Assembly (NCBI GenBank): GCA_030696155.1 | Contig: JAUYSY010000022.1 | Location: forward strand, 4,172 to 68,171 | Reading direction: 5' to 3' | Source of the DNA: Alphaproteobacteria bacterium | GTDB lineage: Bacteria; Pseudomonadota; Alphaproteobacteria; JAUXUR01 | Length of the DNA: 64,000 bases | Part shown: in pieces, positions 46,637 through 57,392 of the stretch | Layout: each line of letters opens with the position of its first letter | How positions within the stretch are numbered: the first letter of the stretch is position 1 | Notes under the pieces: generated by a model | Database searches by the model: none | What the model was told of the DNA's origin: nothing | The model's input: only the letters and a program-made list of their open reading frames with translations | Position numbers and translations under genes: made by a program

Positions 46637-47023
46637 CTAAAGCTGGCATACAACAATTCCCGAAATAAGACCTGTTAAAAGTAAGGTACCAATAATCGTT
46701 ATCCATCCAGAGGCATAAACAGATTTAAGATCCAAACCACGTCCTGCATCCCAAAACAAATGGCGAATGCCGTTCAAAATATGAAAAGAAACACCGAGCG
46801 CACAACCAAAAAGCAACGCAAGTCCAATCCAAGATCTAAAGAAATGTTTAGCCGCTTCATAGGATTCGGGCCCATTCATCAGCGAAACTAAAAAATAAAC
46901 AAGGGCCAATGAACCAAAAGCAAGACCCATACCCGTCAAACGGTGTGTAATGGATAATATCGAGGTAAGTTGAGGCTTATAGATTTGCAAATGGGGTGAA
47001 ATTGGCCGATTACGATTGCTCAT
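46637..47023 (-). CDS. sdhC: succinate dehydrogenase cytochrome b556 subunit
   Basis: The RPISPHLQIYKPQLTSILSITHR signature of SdhC and 3 TM segments. Confidence 0.85.
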   Translation of the reverse strand: MSNRNRPISPHLQIYKPQLTSILSITHRLTGMGLAFGSLALVYFLVSLMNGPESYEAAKHFFRSWIGLALLFGCALGVSFHILNGIRHLFWDAGRGLDLKSVYASGWITIIGTLLLTGLISGIVVCQL

Positions 47024-47270
47024 TCAAACTTTCCCTTATAGCTCGGAGACCCTACTTTTAACTGGATTTCCTTTTAACCCTAAGAGGTTAGCATAATTTT
47101 ATGCGCTTTCAAATAGCAAAAAAGGCCATGAAATCAAGAGTTTTTTTGTTTCTTTTTTTAAAGACATATCTATGTTTCTCAAACATCCAGAACTTATCGT
47201 CTTGTTCAATGTTACGCGCACAAATTATCATCTACGTATTTTTTACGTATATTTTAAATGAAACAAATAT

Positions 47271-47309
47271 AGAATCATCAATCATGTTAAAGAGATGATT
47301 GATGATTCT
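47271..47309. promoter_or_regulatory. perfect palindrome with 15-bp arms (candidate operator or hairpin)
   Basis: AGAATCATCAATCAT-gttaaagag-ATGATTGATGATTCT; it overlaps the ATG of a small ORF. Confidence 0.4.
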
Positions 47310-47462
47310 AAATTAAGTATTACGGCACCAGGAACGGGCGAAAACATTATCTGGGATATGATACGTGTTGCTGCGAAAGAACAATTGCGCGATAAAGAAA
47401 TTTCCAAAGGCGTTTCTAAAGGCGTTGTTACTAACAAAACTTGGTATTTTAAACGAGATTAA
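47295..47462 (+). CDS. possible small ORF (55 aa) not in the ORF track
   Basis: ATG preceded by AAAGAG; MIDDSKLSITAPGTGENIIWDMIRVAAKEQLRDKEISKGVSKGVVTNKTWYFKRD; there is no similarity evidence. Confidence 0.2.
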   Translation: MIDDSKLSITAPGTGENIIWDMIRVAAKEQLRDKEISKGVSKGVVTNKTWYFKRD

Positions 47463-47614
47463 TGAAGATGATCATGTGATTGTGGATAATAACATTATTC
47501 TTGATTAAAAATTAATGCATGTGAACGTAATATTAACAACAGCTTCCTTAATATTGCGTTCATGTTCTTATAAGATTGCCAACATTTCAATATGACACAT
47601 CCTATAAAGAAAAA

Positions 47615-48010
47615 TTATTTCACCCTAATCGCATTACCGGCCGCTTTGATACTAATGCTAGAACCAGTGACCTTACTCACATTCACATCTATCGCCATAT
47701 CACCATAATTTTCAGCTGCAATTTGGAGTTTATCGATAGGGCCTGAAAGCGTTGCTATATTCCCCGAAGAACTAGTCTGAACACTAGAAGAATCAATATC
47801 TTGAACATTGACGTTTTTGCTTGCATCACCATAGCTTATCATGGGATCATCAGCAGAATCACCAGAATTAACAACAATAACTGAATTCCCTGGAGGCGTA
47901 GCATTAGCTGAATTCACTGAATTTAAAGGATTGAAAGAACTTGCATCAATAGCAATAACGTTACATGAAAAAAAAGCTGCAATAACAGCCCACATGGAAA
48001 TGTTTCTCAT
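47615..48010 (-). CDS. small secreted curlin-repeat-like (Gly-Asn beta-solenoid repeat) protein, paralog 4
   Basis: A signal peptide then repeated units of the type S-x-(V/I)-x-(V/I)-x-A-x-G-N-x-(V/I) (e.g. SSISIKAAGNAIRV). Confidence 0.45.
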   Translation of the reverse strand: MRNISMWAVIAAFFSCNVIAIDASSFNPLNSVNSANATPPGNSVIVVNSGDSADDPMISYGDASKNVNVQDIDSSSVQTSSSGNIATLSGPIDKLQIAAENYGDMAIDVNVSKVTGSSISIKAAGNAIRVK

Positions 48011-48135
48011 ATCTTCCTACAGGATTATTTATTTGTGTTGCTAAGATGAGCGTAACATAACATTTTTAAAATAAAAAATTAAATACTAAAAAATATAACA
48101 TCATAATTGAGTCAGTTTATCAAATTTATTATTTA

Positions 48136-48474
48136 TTATCTAAAAGTTATAGAATTTCCAATTGCATTAACCTGAATGTATGAGTTACTCACATTCGAAA
48201 CTTGAGCGTCAGCTATCATGTTGCCGTAGCTTTGCATGAAAAAAACTGAATTTTCAACATTACCACTTAAGTTTATCGTATTACCCGCAGCGCCAACCTG
48301 AACAAATGATGCATCAATACTATCAATTTTTGACGTTGCACTTGCATTACCATAATTCATCTGCTCAATACTTAAATTGTTTTTGACAAAAGGATCAGCG
48401 TTTGAGAAAGAAGGCATTCCCGTTACAAACACAAGAGCCAGGATATAAATCATTTTCTTCATTTCTTCCTCCAT
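48136..48474 (-). CDS. small secreted curlin-repeat-like protein, paralog 3
   Basis: Signal peptide and the repeats SFVQVGAAGNTINL and SYIQVNAIGNSITF. Confidence 0.45.
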   Translation of the reverse strand: MEEEMKKMIYILALVFVTGMPSFSNADPFVKNNLSIEQMNYGNASATSKIDSIDASFVQVGAAGNTINLSGNVENSVFFMQSYGNMIADAQVSNVSNSYIQVNAIGNSITFR

Positions 48475-48535
48475 CCTAAATTATTGCTTTTTATCTCTTT
48501 ATTTCGTTTTTAGTCCAGCATAATTTCATAACTAC

Positions 48536-48665
48536 CCAGCCCCCTCATACGCTCCGCGGCAAGTCCCTTGGGGTCCATGCTGAAAAAGTAAAATGTAAAT
48601 ATTTATCGATACTTTTCAACAAGTTTTATGGATCCCGCGGTCAAGCCGCGGGACGTAGGAGGTGA
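48536..48665. repeat. REP-like palindromic element, family A
   Basis: …CGCTCCGCGGCAAGTCCCTTGGGGTCCAT … TGGATCCCGCGGTCAAGCCGCGGGACGTAGGAGG, between paralogs 2 and 3 of the array. Confidence 0.7.
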
Positions 48666-48788
48666 AATGTTCAAAATTCGCACACCCTCCTGGGCAGTTA
48701 CCCTATTTCATTAATTTCTGCAAAAACAAAATGCTAGTATGACGAACCCTCTCCTAAGAGAGGGCTCATTACGGTAATTTATAGTTAA

Positions 48789-49193
48789 TTATCTCAATGT
48801 AACAGCATTACCAGCTGAGATCACACCAACACTAGAAGCAGTTACACCACTCACTATTCCCAAAGCCGTATTGTCACCATAGCTTTCCGCTGCCATGGAA
48901 AAGTTTTCAACCGTACCTTCAAGAAGCACAGTGTTACCAGCGGCACCCACATCAACTGTTGAAGAATCAATATTTTCAATCGTTGCATTCGTTAATGAGT
49001 TACCGTAGTTTTTAAGCGTTAAGTCGATATTTGTTTTGACATTACTGATAGGATCCCCACCCCAGTCACCACCAAAATCTTCTGAAAAAGTTTCTTCAGT
49101 CATTGGTACTTCAGCAGGTATTTCTTCTGCATAAGCTTTAATTGTGAACACAGTGATTGCAAATGCAAAAGCGATCATTGAAAATTTTTTCAT
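48789..49193 (-). CDS. small secreted curlin-repeat-like protein, paralog 2
   Basis: 134 aa, nearly identical to paralog 1; repeats STVDVGAAGNTVLL and SSVGVISAGNAVTL. Confidence 0.5.
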   Translation of the reverse strand: MKKFSMIAFAFAITVFTIKAYAEEIPAEVPMTEETFSEDFGGDWGGDPISNVKTNIDLTLKNYGNSLTNATIENIDSSTVDVGAAGNTVLLEGTVENFSMAAESYGDNTALGIVSGVTASSVGVISAGNAVTLR

Positions 49194-49242
49194 AACGTCC
49201 TCCTAAGATTATATTGTATTGATTGTCTATTTTTGTGCTTAA

Positions 49243-49647
49243 CTATCTCAATGTGACAGCGTTACCAGCGGAGATCACACCAACAGTGGAAGCCGTTACA
49301 CCACTCACTACTCCAAAAGCCGTATTATTGCCATAGCTTTCAGCCGCCATTGAAAAGTTTTCAACCGTACCTTCAAGAAGCACAGTGTTACCAGCGGCAC
49401 CCACATCAACTGTTGAAGAATCAATATTTTCAATAGTTGCATTCGTTAATGAGTTGCCGTAGTTTTTAAGCGTTAAATCAATATTTGTTTTGACATTACT
49501 GATAGGATCCCCGCCCCAGTCACCACCAAAATCTTCTGAAAAAGTTTCTTCAGTCATTGGTACCTCAGCTGGAACTTCTTCGGCATAAGATTTAATTGAA
49601 AAAAGACCAAGTGCGAGTGCGAACGTGATTAATGATAAACTTCTCAT
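49243..49647 (-). CDS. small secreted curlin-repeat-like protein, paralog 1
   Basis: 134 aa; signal peptide MRSLSLITFALALGLFSIKSYA; the same repeat units. Confidence 0.5.
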   Translation of the reverse strand: MRSLSLITFALALGLFSIKSYAEEVPAEVPMTEETFSEDFGGDWGGDPISNVKTNIDLTLKNYGNSLTNATIENIDSSTVDVGAAGNTVLLEGTVENFSMAAESYGNNTAFGVVSGVTASTVGVISAGNAVTLR

Positions 49648-49717
49648 ATTGTCCTCCTAAGACTATTGTTTGCGTTGTGTGTTTTTTCTTTTTTTCTTCT
49701 TCTTACATTCATCTTAA

Positions 49718-49725
49718 GGGGGGGG
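49718..49725. repeat. G8 homopolymeric tract upstream of the curlin-like array
   Basis: GGGGGGGG lies about 70 bp upstream of the first array gene on its coding strand's 5' side, in an AT-rich intergenic region. Confidence 0.8.
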
Positions 49726-49987
49726 TGCTTAAAAAATGATTAAGATACAAAATTATTTTTAAAAAATTGAATATTTTTTATAATTAGTTGATAAATATAA
49801 CTTATTTTTACATGATTCGAAGCTAAAGACTTAATAGCGGGCGCAATTCAAAAAAAGACCATCAAATTTCTAAAAAATTTACCATCAACTTCTTCAAAAA
49901 GAATTGACTTTAATCATCAAAAGCTCTATAAAGAACCTCATTCACATGTTATCATTCATACATAACAATATGTAAAAGGTTTTTAGA

Positions 49988-50254
49988 ATGGCCAATACAA
50001 AAACGGCAAAACAAAATATTCGTCTTACAGAAAGACGTACAGATATAAATCGTGCTCGTGTTAGCCGCATTCGTACATTTGTTAAAAAGGTTGAAACTGC
50101 AATTCTCAGCGGTAATGCTGAACTTGCAAAGAATGCGTTGATCGCTGCACAACCAGAACTTCATCGTGGCGCCTCTAAAGGCGTGCTGCATAAAAATACC
50201 GTTGCACGTAAGATTTCTCGCTTATCACAGCGCATCAAAACACTTTCCGCTTAA
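49988..50254 (+). CDS. rpsT: 30S ribosomal protein S20
   Basis: [17 protein letters not shown]…; a basic 88-aa protein typical of S20. Confidence 0.9.
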
Positions 50255-50285
50255 CTTTTCTTCCTAAAATTATATAGGTCAACAG

Positions 50286-50308
50286 GCTCCTTTCAAGGAG
50301 CTTGATTT
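50286..50308 (+). terminator. terminator-like hairpin after rpsT
   Basis: GCTCC-tttcaa-GGAGC followed by TTGATTT. Confidence 0.35.
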
Positions 50309-50596
50309 CCCTTGTTATACTTATAATGCTTTAATTTTATTGAAATTTTTTTTTGCATGTTCTTGTTTTGTTCCAGTTGTGCTGTTAGGATTAGGAGGCT
50401 ACTCTCTTCTTCTAGACATAAATACAAATAAGTCAAAATAGATTACAAGCTATTCTTTTGTAATCATTTTTCGTGTATATGACTATAAAAGAACAAACAA
50501 AACAAAGCTACATTAAATAATAATAACAATGTTTTAGTCTTTGGTACGTTGAAATAACAAAAAACTTAGAAACCCACGCTCAAGGTAAGCTTTTGA

Positions 50597-52042
50597 ATGA
50601 CCGATTTTGCTGAAATATTAACCCCGCTACAAGGATCCTTCACCGAAGAGCATCCACTTGATGACTATATTCAGCTTCAATGGGGTGTTGTAAAAGATCT
50701 ATTACGTCAAGAATTAGGCGAGGCTGCCCATCGTAGCTGGATCATGCCTTTAATTGTTCAGGAAAATTTTGCTGGCAGCGTTCAGATTGCAGCACCAACC
50801 CGCTTCATGCGTGATTGGGTTACAACCCATTATGTAGATCGTATTCGTGTTTTATGGCACCAAGTAAACCCATCCATTCATCAAATAGATCTTATTGTTT
50901 CATTAACGCCCCTCACGCATTCATCAATTGCTTCAGTCGAACAGCCAAAAGAAAATACGCACTTCACAAGCACACCAGAAAGCGAAAGCAGTGACGACTC
51001 CCCTTTCGCCTATGATAAATTAAGCATATCGCTTGATCCTAGACTTACCTTTGATAATTTTGTTGTTGGCAAACCAAACGAACTTGCTTTTGCCGCAGCG
51101 CAACGTGTTGCTGAATCAGATAAAGTCATTTTCAACCCATTATTCCTTTATGGTGGCGTTGGCTTAGGTAAAACACATTTAATGCACGCAATTGCCGCAC
51201 GTATCAAAGAAGTGAACCCAGAACGTAAAGTGCTTTATATTTCTGCTGAAAAATTCATGTATCAATTTGTTAAAGCGTTACGTTTCAAAGACACCGTTTC
51301 TTTTAAAGAACAATTCAGAACCGTTAACGTCCTTATGATTGACGATGTACAATTCATCAGCGGTAAAGATTCAACGCAAGAAGAATTTTTTCATACCTTT
51401 AATGCGCTTGTTGATCAGAACCATCAAATCATTGTCTCCGCCGATAAATCTCCTTCTGATTTAGACGGCATGGAAGAACGTTTAAAATCTCGTTTAGGCT
51501 GGGGCCTCGTTGCTGATATTCATCCAACAACCTATGAATTGCGTTTAAGCATATTGCAAGCCAAGGCAGAAAATTTAAAAGCCATTGTGCCTGATAAAGT
51601 TCTTGAATTTTTAGCCCACAAAATAACGTCAAACGTACGTGAATTAGAAGGCGCACTGAATCGCGTTGTCTATCAATCAACGTTGGTTGGCCATGAAATC
51701 AATCTTGAGATGGCACAAGAATTATTGCGCGATTTAATCAGAGCCAATGATCGACGGGTCACCATTGACGAAATACAACGTAAGGTTGCAGAACATTACA
51801 ATATCCGAATATCGGACATGCATTCCAGCAAAAGATCACGTGCCATTGCGCGACCGCGACAAGTCGCAATGTACCTTACCAAACAATTAACACCTTATTC
51901 TTATCCTGAAATTGGACGTAAATTTGGCGGACGGGACCACACAACAGTCATGCATGCTTCCAAAACAATCCAAGAGATGTTAAAAGAAGACATTACATTA
52001 TCAGAAGATATAAGATTATTACGACGCATATTAGAGTCATAA
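50597..52042 (+). CDS. dnaA: chromosomal replication initiator DnaA
   Basis: The AAA+ Walker A GGVGLGKTHL, Walker B MIDDVQF and sensor motifs, plus the C-terminal DnaA-box-binding domain (…RPRQVAMYL…). Confidence 0.95.
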   Translation: MTDFAEILTPLQGSFTEEHPLDDYIQLQWGVVKDLLRQELGEAAHRSWIMPLIVQENFAGSVQIAAPTRFMRDWVTTHYVDRIRVLWHQVNPSIHQIDLIVSLTPLTHSSIASVEQPKENTHFTSTPESESSDDSPFAYDKLSISLDPRLTFDNFVVGKPNELAFAAAQRVAESDKVIFNPLFLYGGVGLGKTHLMHAIAARIKEVNPERKVLYISAEKFMYQFVKALRFKDTVSFKEQFRTVNVLMIDDVQFISGKDSTQEEFFHTFNALVDQNHQIIVSADKSPSDLDGMEERLKSRLGWGLVADIHPTTYELRLSILQAKAENLKAIVPDKVLEFLAHKITSNVRELEGALNRVVYQSTLVGHEINLEMAQELLRDLIRANDRRVTIDEIQRKVAEHYNIRISDMHSSKRSRAIARPRQVAMYLTKQLTPYSYPEIGRKFGGRDHTTVMHASKTIQEMLKEDITLSEDIRLLRRILES

Positions 52043-55006: not shown

Positions 55007-55053
55007 GTAAGCCAATGCGACTAATAAATGGTTGCTCAAAACGAGGTAAATCG

Positions 55054-55695
55054 ATGTTTAGAAAATTTGCACTTTACACCATTATTCTTTTTTCGTATGC
55101 GAATCTCACTTTTGCGGGTAACGCTTCTAACGAAGCAGAAAAACATGTAATTGAACAAGAAAGTTATGCAGCAGCTATTGAAGAAGAAAATAACGCGCAT
55201 CTGTTTGAACAAGAAAATCATGCAATGGCTATTGAAGAAGAAAACGATGAAATGGATGGAAACTATGCTTCTTATTATTTGGACAACATAATTAATACTA
55301 CATTAACTCATTACCCACAATATCGCATCACTTTGGATTTAATGCTTGATTTTTACTGTCATGCCAATGAATTACTAAATGTTAATTATACTCAAAATGA
55401 AAACAATAGATTTTTTGAAGCTTTTGTTGATTTAGCCCTTAAAGCAAACAATCGCGCGCAAAACCTCATAATAGAGATACCTCGCCACTCTGGTATTTTT
55501 AATATTTTTATCAATAATAATAATGCATTTATAAATACTATGTTACGCTCTCCGACTTCATTTGGATGTATTGGCAATGATCGTACTATTCGATTGCTTA
55601 TAAACAGAATACAAAGAAAAGTGAATGCTCAACGTAATCCAATCCAACGTAATCGGGTGCAACGTAGCCATAACGTACTCTTTCCAATCAACTAA
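55054..55695 (+). CDS. small secreted protein, paralog family member 1; the start is taken at the internal ATG preceded by a conserved RBS
   Basis: Signal peptide MFRKFALYTIILFSYANLTFA; a conserved core (…LDLMLDFYCHANELL…, …AQNLIIE…); internal HVIEQE/FEQEN repeats; upstream ACGAGGTAAATCG-ATG. Confidence 0.55.
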   Translation: MFRKFALYTIILFSYANLTFAGNASNEAEKHVIEQESYAAAIEEENNAHLFEQENHAMAIEEENDEMDGNYASYYLDNIINTTLTHYPQYRITLDLMLDFYCHANELLNVNYTQNENNRFFEAFVDLALKANNRAQNLIIEIPRHSGIFNIFINNNNAFINTMLRSPTSFGCIGNDRTIRLLINRIQRKVNAQRNPIQRNRVQRSHNVLFPIN

Positions 55696-56073: not shown

Positions 56074-56128
56074 GTAAGTGTATATGACTAATAATCATAT
56101 TGATATTCATTCAACACAAGGTAAAAAA

Positions 56129-56653
56129 ATGTTCAAAAAATTTGCGCTTTTCACCATTATGCTTTTCTCCTATACAAATCCTATCATTGCTGAGGATATG
56201 CAAGAAAATAGGGAACATGTTAATATAGAAATTGAAGATGAGGGCGAAGAACTTTCACTAGATGTAATGGAAAGGATTATTACGCAATTCACAGGATATC
56301 TAGAAGCTAAATTCGATCAACGTCACACAACCACTTTCGGTGAAGTGCTGGATTTTTTTCAAGACGAAATAGAAAACCATGCTCATAGATATTTGCTCCA
56401 TTTCTATATAAATGGTTTAGAAATTGATGAAAATTATGGTGATGTTGAAGCTATTATTGAATTAGGTTTAAAAGCTGCAGAAATAGCTCAAGATAATATA
56501 GACAGACGCCCAGAAACCAAAGCAGCTCTAGAAGACTTTATTAAAAGAAATATAGAATTTCTTCAAAAACTTATTGATGAATTTGCACAAAGAAGAAGCC
56601 ACGTAAGCTCTTTTGCTGCTCTACAACAAAAATTACATCACTTACAACAATAA
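56129..56653 (+). CDS. small secreted protein, paralog family member 2
   Basis: Signal peptide MFKKFALFTIMLFSYTNPIIA; a conserved core (…VLDFFQDEIENHAHRYLLHFYINGLE…, …AAEIAQDNIDRRPETK…); an AAGGTAAAAAA-ATG RBS context. Confidence 0.55.
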   Translation: MFKKFALFTIMLFSYTNPIIAEDMQENREHVNIEIEDEGEELSLDVMERIITQFTGYLEAKFDQRHTTTFGEVLDFFQDEIENHAHRYLLHFYINGLEIDENYGDVEAIIELGLKAAEIAQDNIDRRPETKAALEDFIKRNIEFLQKLIDEFAQRRSHVSSFAALQQKLHHLQQ

Positions 56654-56987: not shown

Positions 56988-57392
56988 ATGTTCAAAAAAT
57001 TAGCCATTTACACCATCATTCTTTTTTCATATGTAAGCCCCTCTTTTTCACTTACAGACGAAGAAATAGCTGCGGCTGACATCGCTGCATATAAATTTAT
57101 TGAAAACTTAGAAACAACGCTTGCCCCAAAACACGCTTGGACATTAGCACAAATGCTTGATTTTTTTAGCGATAAAGATGGCAATAATGCTCATCAAATT
57201 ATGGCAAATTTTTATTTAGATGCATTAGAAGACACTACACCACATAGTTTTAATCTAGCTTTTATTAAATTAGCATTAGCAGCTTCTGAAATTGCACAAG
57301 ATAACATCAAGGGAAGACCCTATACTAAGAACGACTTAAGCAAATTTATTGAAAACAATAAAGAGCTTATTAAATTTGTTTTAACGCACTAA
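56988..57392 (+). CDS. small secreted protein, paralog family member 3
   Basis: Signal peptide MFKKLAIYTIILFSYVSPSFS; a conserved core (…MLDFFSDKDGNNAHQIMANFYLDALE…, …ASEIAQDNIKGRPYTK…); the RBS ACGAGGTAAACCA-ATG. Confidence 0.55.
   Translation: MFKKLAIYTIILFSYVSPSFSLTDEEIAAADIAAYKFIENLETTLAPKHAWTLAQMLDFFSDKDGNNAHQIMANFYLDALEDTTPHSFNLAFIKLALAASEIAQDNIKGRPYTKNDLSKFIENNKELIKFVLTH

Follow-up and report, generated by a model that had tools for sequence, protein, structure and literature searches.

What is encoded by the four small tandem genes found on the minus strand of a 64,000-nt stretch of an alphaproteobacterial contig (JAUYSY010000022.1, the whole stretch being referred to as the window), and is their expression switched by the run of eight guanines (G8) that precedes the first of them? 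The initial annotation of these genes, here designated g1 to g4 (Table 1), described secreted proteins with curlin-like repeats, whose expression could be phase variable. The array is read here as a lineage-restricted, unannotated orphan family of small Sec-exported proteins of predicted all-beta structure. In our overall reading, which remains tentative and to which we assign somewhat less than an even chance, these represent exported proteins of the envelope or surface which are produced from a CtrA-type promoter and are neither curlins nor phase variable.

The description of four small minus-strand genes next to the rpsT-dnaA region, two of them nearly identical, was borne out, with open reading frames (ORFs) specifying products of 108 (or 112) to 134 aa and g1 and g2 sharing 88% identity over their full length and 95% across the core. 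The ORF of g3 reaches position 48474 (112 aa); a GGAGG Shine-Dalgarno sequence and the NCBI annotation favor the ATG of MKKM at 48462 (108 aa). Among the NCBI entries (P numbers denoting family proteins), P0001 is identical to g1, while P0007 (108 aa) and P0006 correspond to g3 and g4, respectively. Each of the four N termini displays typical features of a Sec-type signal peptide as read from the sequence (a basic n-region, a hydrophobic stretch of 12 to 15 residues, and small residues at -3/-1), in agreement with the signal peptides assigned at the outset, and export of the family proteins is regarded as very probable.

The conserved core spans 77 to 90 residues and opens with an Asp-Pro dipeptide which is invariant in all 17 aligned members (g1 residues 47 and 48; window positions 49504 to 49509). 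This dipeptide directly follows the signal peptide in g3 and in the proteins of the related locus L009; in g1, g2, and g4, a variable linker, either acidic or rich in Ser and Asn, comes before it. The dipeptide may function as an N-cap or in sorting, or it may mark a second site of processing. The core consists of two repeats of ~42 aa, an internal duplication which is evident from the alignment of its first half with its second (hhalign probability, 98.4%; expectation [E] value, 6.8e-15). Each repeat is, in turn, composed of two sub-units of ~21 aa each, A and B, with the layout strand, Gly-Asn turn, strand, their respective patterns being N-I-x-L-x-x-x-N-Y-G-N-x-x-x-x-A-x-I and I-D-S-S-x-V-x-V-G-A-A-G-N-x-V-x-L-x-G. 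The B unit appears twice per protein, as STVDVGAAGNTVLL and STVGVISAGNAVTL in g1 and g2, SFVQVGAAGNTINL and SYIQVNAIGNSITF in g3, and SSVQTSSSGNIATL and SSISIKAAGNAIRV in g4, where repeat 1 is without its first strand and the linker is long and Ser/Asn-rich. Comparisons of A with A' and of B with B' each yielded an E value of ~2.5e-10, whereas A and B were not significantly alike (E, 0.02 to 0.15). All 17 members retain the Gly residue in each of the four Gly-Asn turns, conserved Asn residues are limited to those within these turns, and the overall composition is rich in Asn, Gly, Ser, Thr, and Val, with no Cys, Trp, or His and no Pro beyond that of the Asp-Pro pair. The repeat unit that had been recognized initially, S-x-V-x-V-G-A-A-G-N-x-V, is, therefore, present as part of the B sub-unit, twice per protein, but the true period is one of ~42 aa and not that of four equal units.

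The family genes are real, as is apparent from their low ratios of nonsynonymous to synonymous substitution (dN/dS), which range from 0.10 to 0.30 in all orthologue pairs (0.12 for g1 and its L002 orthologue), and they are under purifying selection; synonymous divergence (dS) reaches 0.69 between the window and L002 and exceeds 1.7 relative to L092 (L numbers denoting the related loci or assemblies compared with the window). The family comprises 16 proteins among 5.8 billion clustered proteins, and when 1.84 billion representatives were searched exhaustively with a profile, nine matches were obtained, two of which, both long repeat proteins, were judged spurious. The genomic surroundings of its members are of at least three unrelated kinds, with no neighboring gene in common. 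When all members were compared with Pfam and NCBIfam, only noise far below threshold emerged (Apicomplexa microprotein, GrpE, UL73_N, and similar). Searches of PDB sequences with two family profiles retrieved no match even at an E value of ≤10, a scan of GTDB genomes with a single protein found no relative, and metagenome scans with the promoter pattern described below and with g1 yielded nothing further. For taxonomic placement, a scan with SdhA retrieved only matches of 66 to 74% identity, scattered over Alpha- and Gammaproteobacteria, with no close named relative among them.

By six-frame profile search, the window was found to contain four family copies. Copy number differs among relatives, the same search locating five genes in L002, at positions 2900 to 5328, and three more divergent genes in L009, at 2582 to 3876, while L008 has one. 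The third family gene of L009 is overlapped at its end by an ORF at 3842 to 4246, which specifies a small exported protein of 134 aa that is Pro/Asn-rich, contains two Cys residues, and lacks any Pfam match; this protein, for which the window has no equivalent, may be an accessory factor. In L003 (3705 to 4557), a g1-type sequence replaces the signal peptide of g2, which, together with a dS of 0.10 between g1 and g2, indicates gene conversion within the array.

The proposal that the array encodes curlins was assessed by means of the Pfam Curlin_rpt model (PF07012), which yielded no match at an E value of ≤10 in the four window proteins, the 17 family cores, or the full-length distant members, ~20 members in all, whereas the Escherichia coli CsgA control (sequence verified against PDB 8ENQ) was matched at 1.4e-27 with five repeats. 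The minimal curli repeat of Dueholm et al., X6QXGX2NX10 (PMC3521004), occurs four times in CsgA and in none of the 17 members, and alignment of the family profile with CsgA returned an hhalign probability of 1%. As the cores of g1 and g2 contain no Gln, a Gln/Asn ladder is absent. Nor is there an array of at least four equivalent repeats of 19 to 23 aa, given the twofold ~42-aa period and the lack of significant likeness between A and B. That the proteins are nonetheless true functional amyloid subunits of the CsgA/CsgB kind, leaving the cell by a CsgG-like channel whose gene is located elsewhere in the genome, might be envisaged on the basis of ~21-aa units with a strand/Gly-Asn/strand layout, a local identity of 38% between IDLTLKNYGNSLTN and CsgA repeat R3 (IDLTQRGFGNSATL), and the alignment of the A unit with a profile of CsgA R1 to R5, which is in register on Gly-Asn (P value, 0.0036) at a probability of 9%. 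The distant L009 members, moreover, carry I-x-Q-x-N-x-G-N, the most curlin-like variant, and csgE and csgF are missing from many alphaproteobacterial curli operons (PMC3521004). However, no csgG-, csgE-, csgF-, or csgH-like neighbor was identified in five loci, based on Pfam annotation of the neighbors in L001, L002, L008, and L009 and on ten unassigned ORFs of the window, in line with the earlier statement that the window ORFs include no CsgG/E/F-like gene; csgH has been reported always to adjoin csgA/B in those Alphaproteobacteria that possess it (PMC3521004). Curli identity is, at the sequence level, already largely refuted, and we consider it extremely unlikely. By sequence criteria, the family is not a curlin family, the resemblance being one of style (a small exported protein with strand/Gly-Asn arch/strand units) and not one of kinship.

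Upstream of g1, a perfect CtrA-type box, TTAA-N7-TTAA, occupies the -35 region of the inferred promoter and is followed by a -10-like hexamer, TAAGAT. TTAA-N7-TTAA represents the CtrA consensus, and most CtrA-activated promoters, that of pilA included, have one such site at -35 (PMC11264516). The motif occurs 19 times in the window against 8.2 ± 2.8 occurrences in shuffled sequences and 12 times in intergenic DNA against 3.0 ± 1.7 under a first-order Markov model, representing an ~4-fold excess which was reached in 0 of 1,000 simulations, and N7 constitutes the peak among spacings N4 to N11 in intergenic DNA. Both TTAA half-sites are retained in five assemblies from four lineages (window, L001, L002, L003, and L092), in which TAAGAT is invariant, and the sequence of the N7 segment differs in L092. 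Across the ~155 nt upstream of g1 (49648 to 49802), five differences separate the window from L002, a single one of which falls within the last ~135 nt, compared with a dS of 0.69 for g1 itself. Conservation of the leader was observed to extend past the promoter elements; no RNA family was detected by an Rfam search of positions 47000 to 50700, so that this leader corresponds to no known riboswitch or small RNA. Several of the other boxes in the window are located 65 to 150 nt upstream of genes for exported-protein paralogues, with TATAAT-like hexamers 7 to 13 nt further on, which suggests that the CtrA regulon of this organism may be rich in secreted proteins. On balance, CtrA dependence of g1-g2 expression is mildly favored.

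Poly-G/C tracts situated between promoter elements control surface proteins, such as Neisseria PorA/Opc and Bordetella Fim. The 8-G run that had been reported ~70 bp upstream of the first gene is present, 71 nt from the ATG of g1, and fills most of the 12-nt interval that separates the CtrA-type box from the -10-like hexamer; given the TTAA-N7-TTAA and TAAGAT sequences on its two flanks, it is read as the likely spacer of a CtrA-type promoter. It is the sole G/C run of ≥7 in 64 kb (0.04 to 0.12 runs of ≥8 being expected under an independent-base model at 36.7% GC), and it passes the cut-off of ≥7 G/C that has been applied to nominate phase-variable loci (PMC6321876). Because the tract lies between the box and the -10 hexamer, where a change of a single nucleotide would plausibly matter, it was reasonable to suppose that g1 and g2 are phase variable, with slipped-strand mispairing at G8 shifting the distance from the activator box to the -10 hexamer. 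In addition, slippage does occur in this lineage, as is evident from a run of G within the palindromic element located between g2 and g3, which has five residues in the window (positions 48540 to 48544), six in L001, and eight in L003; no such variation in length, however, is seen among the assemblies at the promoter tract. The comparison of tract length with other isolates that the initial annotation had proposed revealed no length difference: the spacer measures 12 nt, with no indels, in all five assemblies, including L002 despite its synonymous divergence of 0.69. The tract is C8 (gene strand) in three assemblies and has become C9 in L003 through two substitutions, whereas in L092, the most distant relative, it is replaced by the interrupted, nonrepetitive CCGCCTCCCGGC of equal length. 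A run of eight, furthermore, falls at the low end for mutable tracts. As the spacer is constant in length and L092 has no homopolymer, phase variation is not supported, and we consider it very unlikely; what these alignments point to as the conserved feature is a C-rich 12-nt spacer of fixed length and not a variable switch.

The insertion of a repetitive extragenic palindromic (REP) element between the second and third copies was confirmed. The element is one of a palindromic family that is represented at least six times in the window, and it corresponds to an insertion of ~163 bp which is present in the window, L001, and L003 and absent from L002, so that it is placed in the lineage of the former three; the L001 copy was observed to carry a 7-nt deletion in one arm. 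The insertion site lies just downstream of a GC-rich hairpin, beyond which g3 and g4 are located. This hairpin is retained in all assemblies, a similar one follows the single gene of L092, and it likely acts as a terminator or attenuator of a g1-g2 unit. The g2 gene starts 49 nt downstream of g1 and has a strong Shine-Dalgarno sequence of its own, and the two genes are probably cotranscribed.

Table 1. Positions of the gene array, of its predicted regulatory elements, and of further features within the window
Feature	Position	Strand	Description
g1	49243-49647	minus	134-aa predicted exported protein: signal peptide MRSLSLITFALALGLFSIKSYA, acidic linker, Asp-Pro, two-repeat core of 86-88 aa
g2	48789-49193	minus	134 aa, paralogue of g1
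g3	48136-48462	minus	108-aa paralogue; Asp-Pro opens the mature protein directly
g4	47615-48010	minus	131 aa, most divergent of the four paralogues
CtrA-type box TTAA-N7-TTAA	49729-49743		Perfect box; -35 region of inferred g1 promoter
G8	49718-49725	plus	C8 on the gene strand
-10-like hexamer TAAGAT (inferred)	49711-49716	minus
Purine-rich leader	49648-49705	minus	AAGAAGAAGAAAAAAAGAAAAAAC...; ends in strong Shine-Dalgarno AGGAGG (49653-49658)
Hairpin	48744-48767	minus	GC-rich, followed by T-rich stretch; just past g2 stop
REP/MITE-like element (MITE, miniature inverted-repeat transposable element)	~48527-48689		Palindromic; arms at 48543-48560 and 48645-48662
Intergenic TTAA-N7-TTAA sites (15 nt), starts	909, 1061, 21039, 23409, 24401, 24452, 36429, 44286, 49729, 55977, 56841, 59809
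rpsT	49988-50254
dnaA	50597-52042
ORF, longer form	47211-47507	plus	98 aa, annotated in sister assembly L001; between g4 and sdhC
ORF, window form	47295-47462		55 aa
Three paralogues	19082-20944, 21383-23314, 23609-24385	minus	620, 643, and 258 aa
54-nt tandem repeats	19963-20127		Within the gene of the 620-aa paralogue
Three tandem paralogues	55015-55695, 56078-56653, 56988-57392	plus	Signal-peptide-like N termini MF[RK]KFA[LI][YF]TI...

The array is flanked by sdhC on one side and by rpsT and dnaA on the other, and the order sdhC-array-rpsT is kept in four assemblies (window, L001, L002, and L003). The ORF between g4 and sdhC is shortened in the window by a deletion and a frameshift relative to L001 and is probably a strain-specific pseudogene. 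Two further groups of paralogous genes for putative exported proteins were observed in the window. The three minus-strand paralogues have near-identical signal peptides, and a CtrA-type box precedes each of them; the 620-aa member, the only one of the three that was scanned, harbors a C-terminal RamC_N-like domain. The upstream regions of the three plus-strand paralogues are conserved, the one member scanned (55015 to 55695) has no Pfam match, and this group is taken to be another array of predicted lineage-specific exported proteins.

According to the model that we propose, g1 and g2 would be transcribed from the conserved promoter formed by the CtrA-type box, the C-rich 12-nt spacer, and TAAGAT, with a transcription start predicted near position 49702 and with the purine-rich leader and the Shine-Dalgarno sequence following; the hairpin after g2 would end this unit; g3 and g4 would follow, split from g2 by the REP-type insertion. 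The encoded proteins would represent abundant structural proteins of the cell envelope or surface, their expression being timed by CtrA as it is for the pilin and flagellar genes of Caulobacter, and the chances of such an envelope or surface role are judged to be even. The Gly-Asn arches and the cap-less C terminus would fit a stackable beta-arch (solenoid-like) architecture, in which case g1 and g2 may constitute major subunits and g3 and g4 minor ones. A solenoid-like stack of four Gly-Asn arches is a reasonable reading of the sequence, which agrees just as well with a closed, pseudo-twofold beta domain, and polymer or solenoid architecture is itself doubtful. In its most developed form, this proposal envisages a beta-arch fiber subunit of unrecognized type, i.e., a mini-solenoid of two 42-aa double-arch repeats that would polymerize on the envelope of a deep-branching uncultured alphaproteobacterial lineage without curli, Fap, or chaperone-usher machinery, with major g1/g2 and minor g3/g4 subunits under CtrA timing; we regard this as improbable.

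Several observations weigh against the proposed model. AlphaFold2 predictions for the g1 core (from 11 sequences) and the g3 core (from 15) reached a predicted local distance difference test (pLDDT) score of only 43 and 47, respectively, with low-confidence beta strands, and a Foldseek comparison of the better model with the PDB retrieved nothing below an E value of 0.09, none of the hits being significant. The hydropathy profiles of A and B correlate weakly (r, 0.37) in a register test of rung equivalence, and the number of repeats is two in every one of the ~20 members, so that an open-ended solenoid fits no better than a closed pseudo-symmetric domain. With regard to expression, the promoter elements are predicted from sequence, and a generic sigma-70 scan called no promoter at the tract. 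Finally, none of the loci has a linked gene for outer-membrane secretion or assembly, and the proteins may, therefore, simply remain periplasmic.

The main rival to polymerization takes up this last point, proposing that the proteins are soluble periplasmic or outer-membrane-associated globular proteins, in which the two 42-aa repeats would pack as one pseudo-twofold beta domain of approximately eight short strands, which would contribute to envelope integrity or stress resistance in monomeric or small oligomeric form, without building a fiber. The presence of exactly two repeats throughout the family, the lack of linked secretion or assembly genes in three genomic contexts, and the absence of significant likeness between A and B, which do not form a run of equal rungs, all speak for such a domain. 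A precedent exists in Brucella EipA, which is reported to be a CtrA-activated periplasmic envelope-stress protein (bioRxiv 10.1101/442541). However, AlphaFold2 provided no confident globular fold either, and the composition, the invariant Gly-Asn turns, and the several colocated paralogues, which diverge in a major/minor-like manner, are more characteristic of beta-arch proteins that stack. A soluble beta domain is a serious possibility, albeit one that we would not back at even odds.

Weak hints of a beta-helical architecture may be drawn from the A-unit/CsgA register described above and from DUF2807 (PF10988), which was matched below threshold over the whole core of P0011 (E, 0.003 to 0.007; 16.6 bits against a gathering cut-off of 24.2), one of 17 members. 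Pfam describes it as a putative autotransporter-adhesin head (GIN) domain. Its rhythm is x-V-x-V-x-G-x-G-x-I-x-L-x-G, and its fold is beta-helical. The Foldseek list also features several beta-helical proteins (FapC, bactofilin, MinC, an antifreeze protein, and pectate lyase), all with template-modeling (TM) scores of <0.35, and these were not counted as evidence. Other candidate families, none of which received Pfam support, were considered and dropped on the basis of the sequence: R-body Reb proteins, chaplins, and the Greek keys of beta-gamma-crystallins; repeats-in-toxin (RTX) nonapeptides, where GAAGNTVLL resembles GGAGNDTL but appears once per 42 aa, with no Asp; lipoproteins, as no lipobox is present; and eight-stranded outer-membrane barrels, for which the strands are too short.

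If fibers are formed, the array would represent a new and very compact system akin to functional amyloids, operating without dedicated secretion genes, and it would link a surface polymer with the cell-cycle regulator of the Alphaproteobacteria in a lineage that is uncultured. Should the products instead be periplasmic beta domains, they would make up an orphan family with clear boundaries, numbering ~20 sequences and built on an obvious repeat plan, and the locus would offer a clean case of a promoter of the CtrA type. In either case, the labels "curlin" and "phase variable" are removed, and the locus illustrates that a conspicuous homopolymer can be a spacer of fixed length under purifying selection. 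Nothing in these findings overturns current understanding; the family itself is new and neatly delimited.

Among known systems, CsgA/CsgB are similar in being small Sec-exported proteins of ~110 to 150 aa with imperfect ~21-aa strand/Gly-Asn/strand units, a composition rich in Asn, Gly, Ser, Thr, and Ala without Cys, adjacent paralogous subunit genes, and repeats that a linker separates from the signal peptide. The family differs in that its core is hydrophobic (Val/Ile/Leu) whereas that of curlins is polar, in its two 42-aa (A plus B) repeats as opposed to the 4 to 22 equal repeats of curlins, and in lacking a hidden Markov model (HMM) match, the X6QXGX2NX10 motif, linked csgG/E/F/H, and, in g1 and g2, any Gln. 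DUF2807 resembles the family through the only recurrent, though weak, Pfam match and a similar rhythm, but its score falls below the cut-off in one member of 17, and the family has at most four short units. With homopolymer-controlled promoters, the locus shares a G/C run of ≥7 in the promoter spacer of a gene for a putative surface or exported protein; here, however, the tract is short (8), its length is constant in five assemblies, and the orthologous promoter has a nonrepetitive spacer of equal length. As for the CtrA promoters of Caulobacter (pilA, fliQ, and fliL [PMC11264516]), the present spacer differs in being an unusual C8 run, and the site is a predicted one, but the likeness consists of a TTAA-N7-TTAA box which lies over the -35 region upstream of predicted exported or surface genes, is kept among relatives, and belongs to a motif enriched in intergenic DNA.

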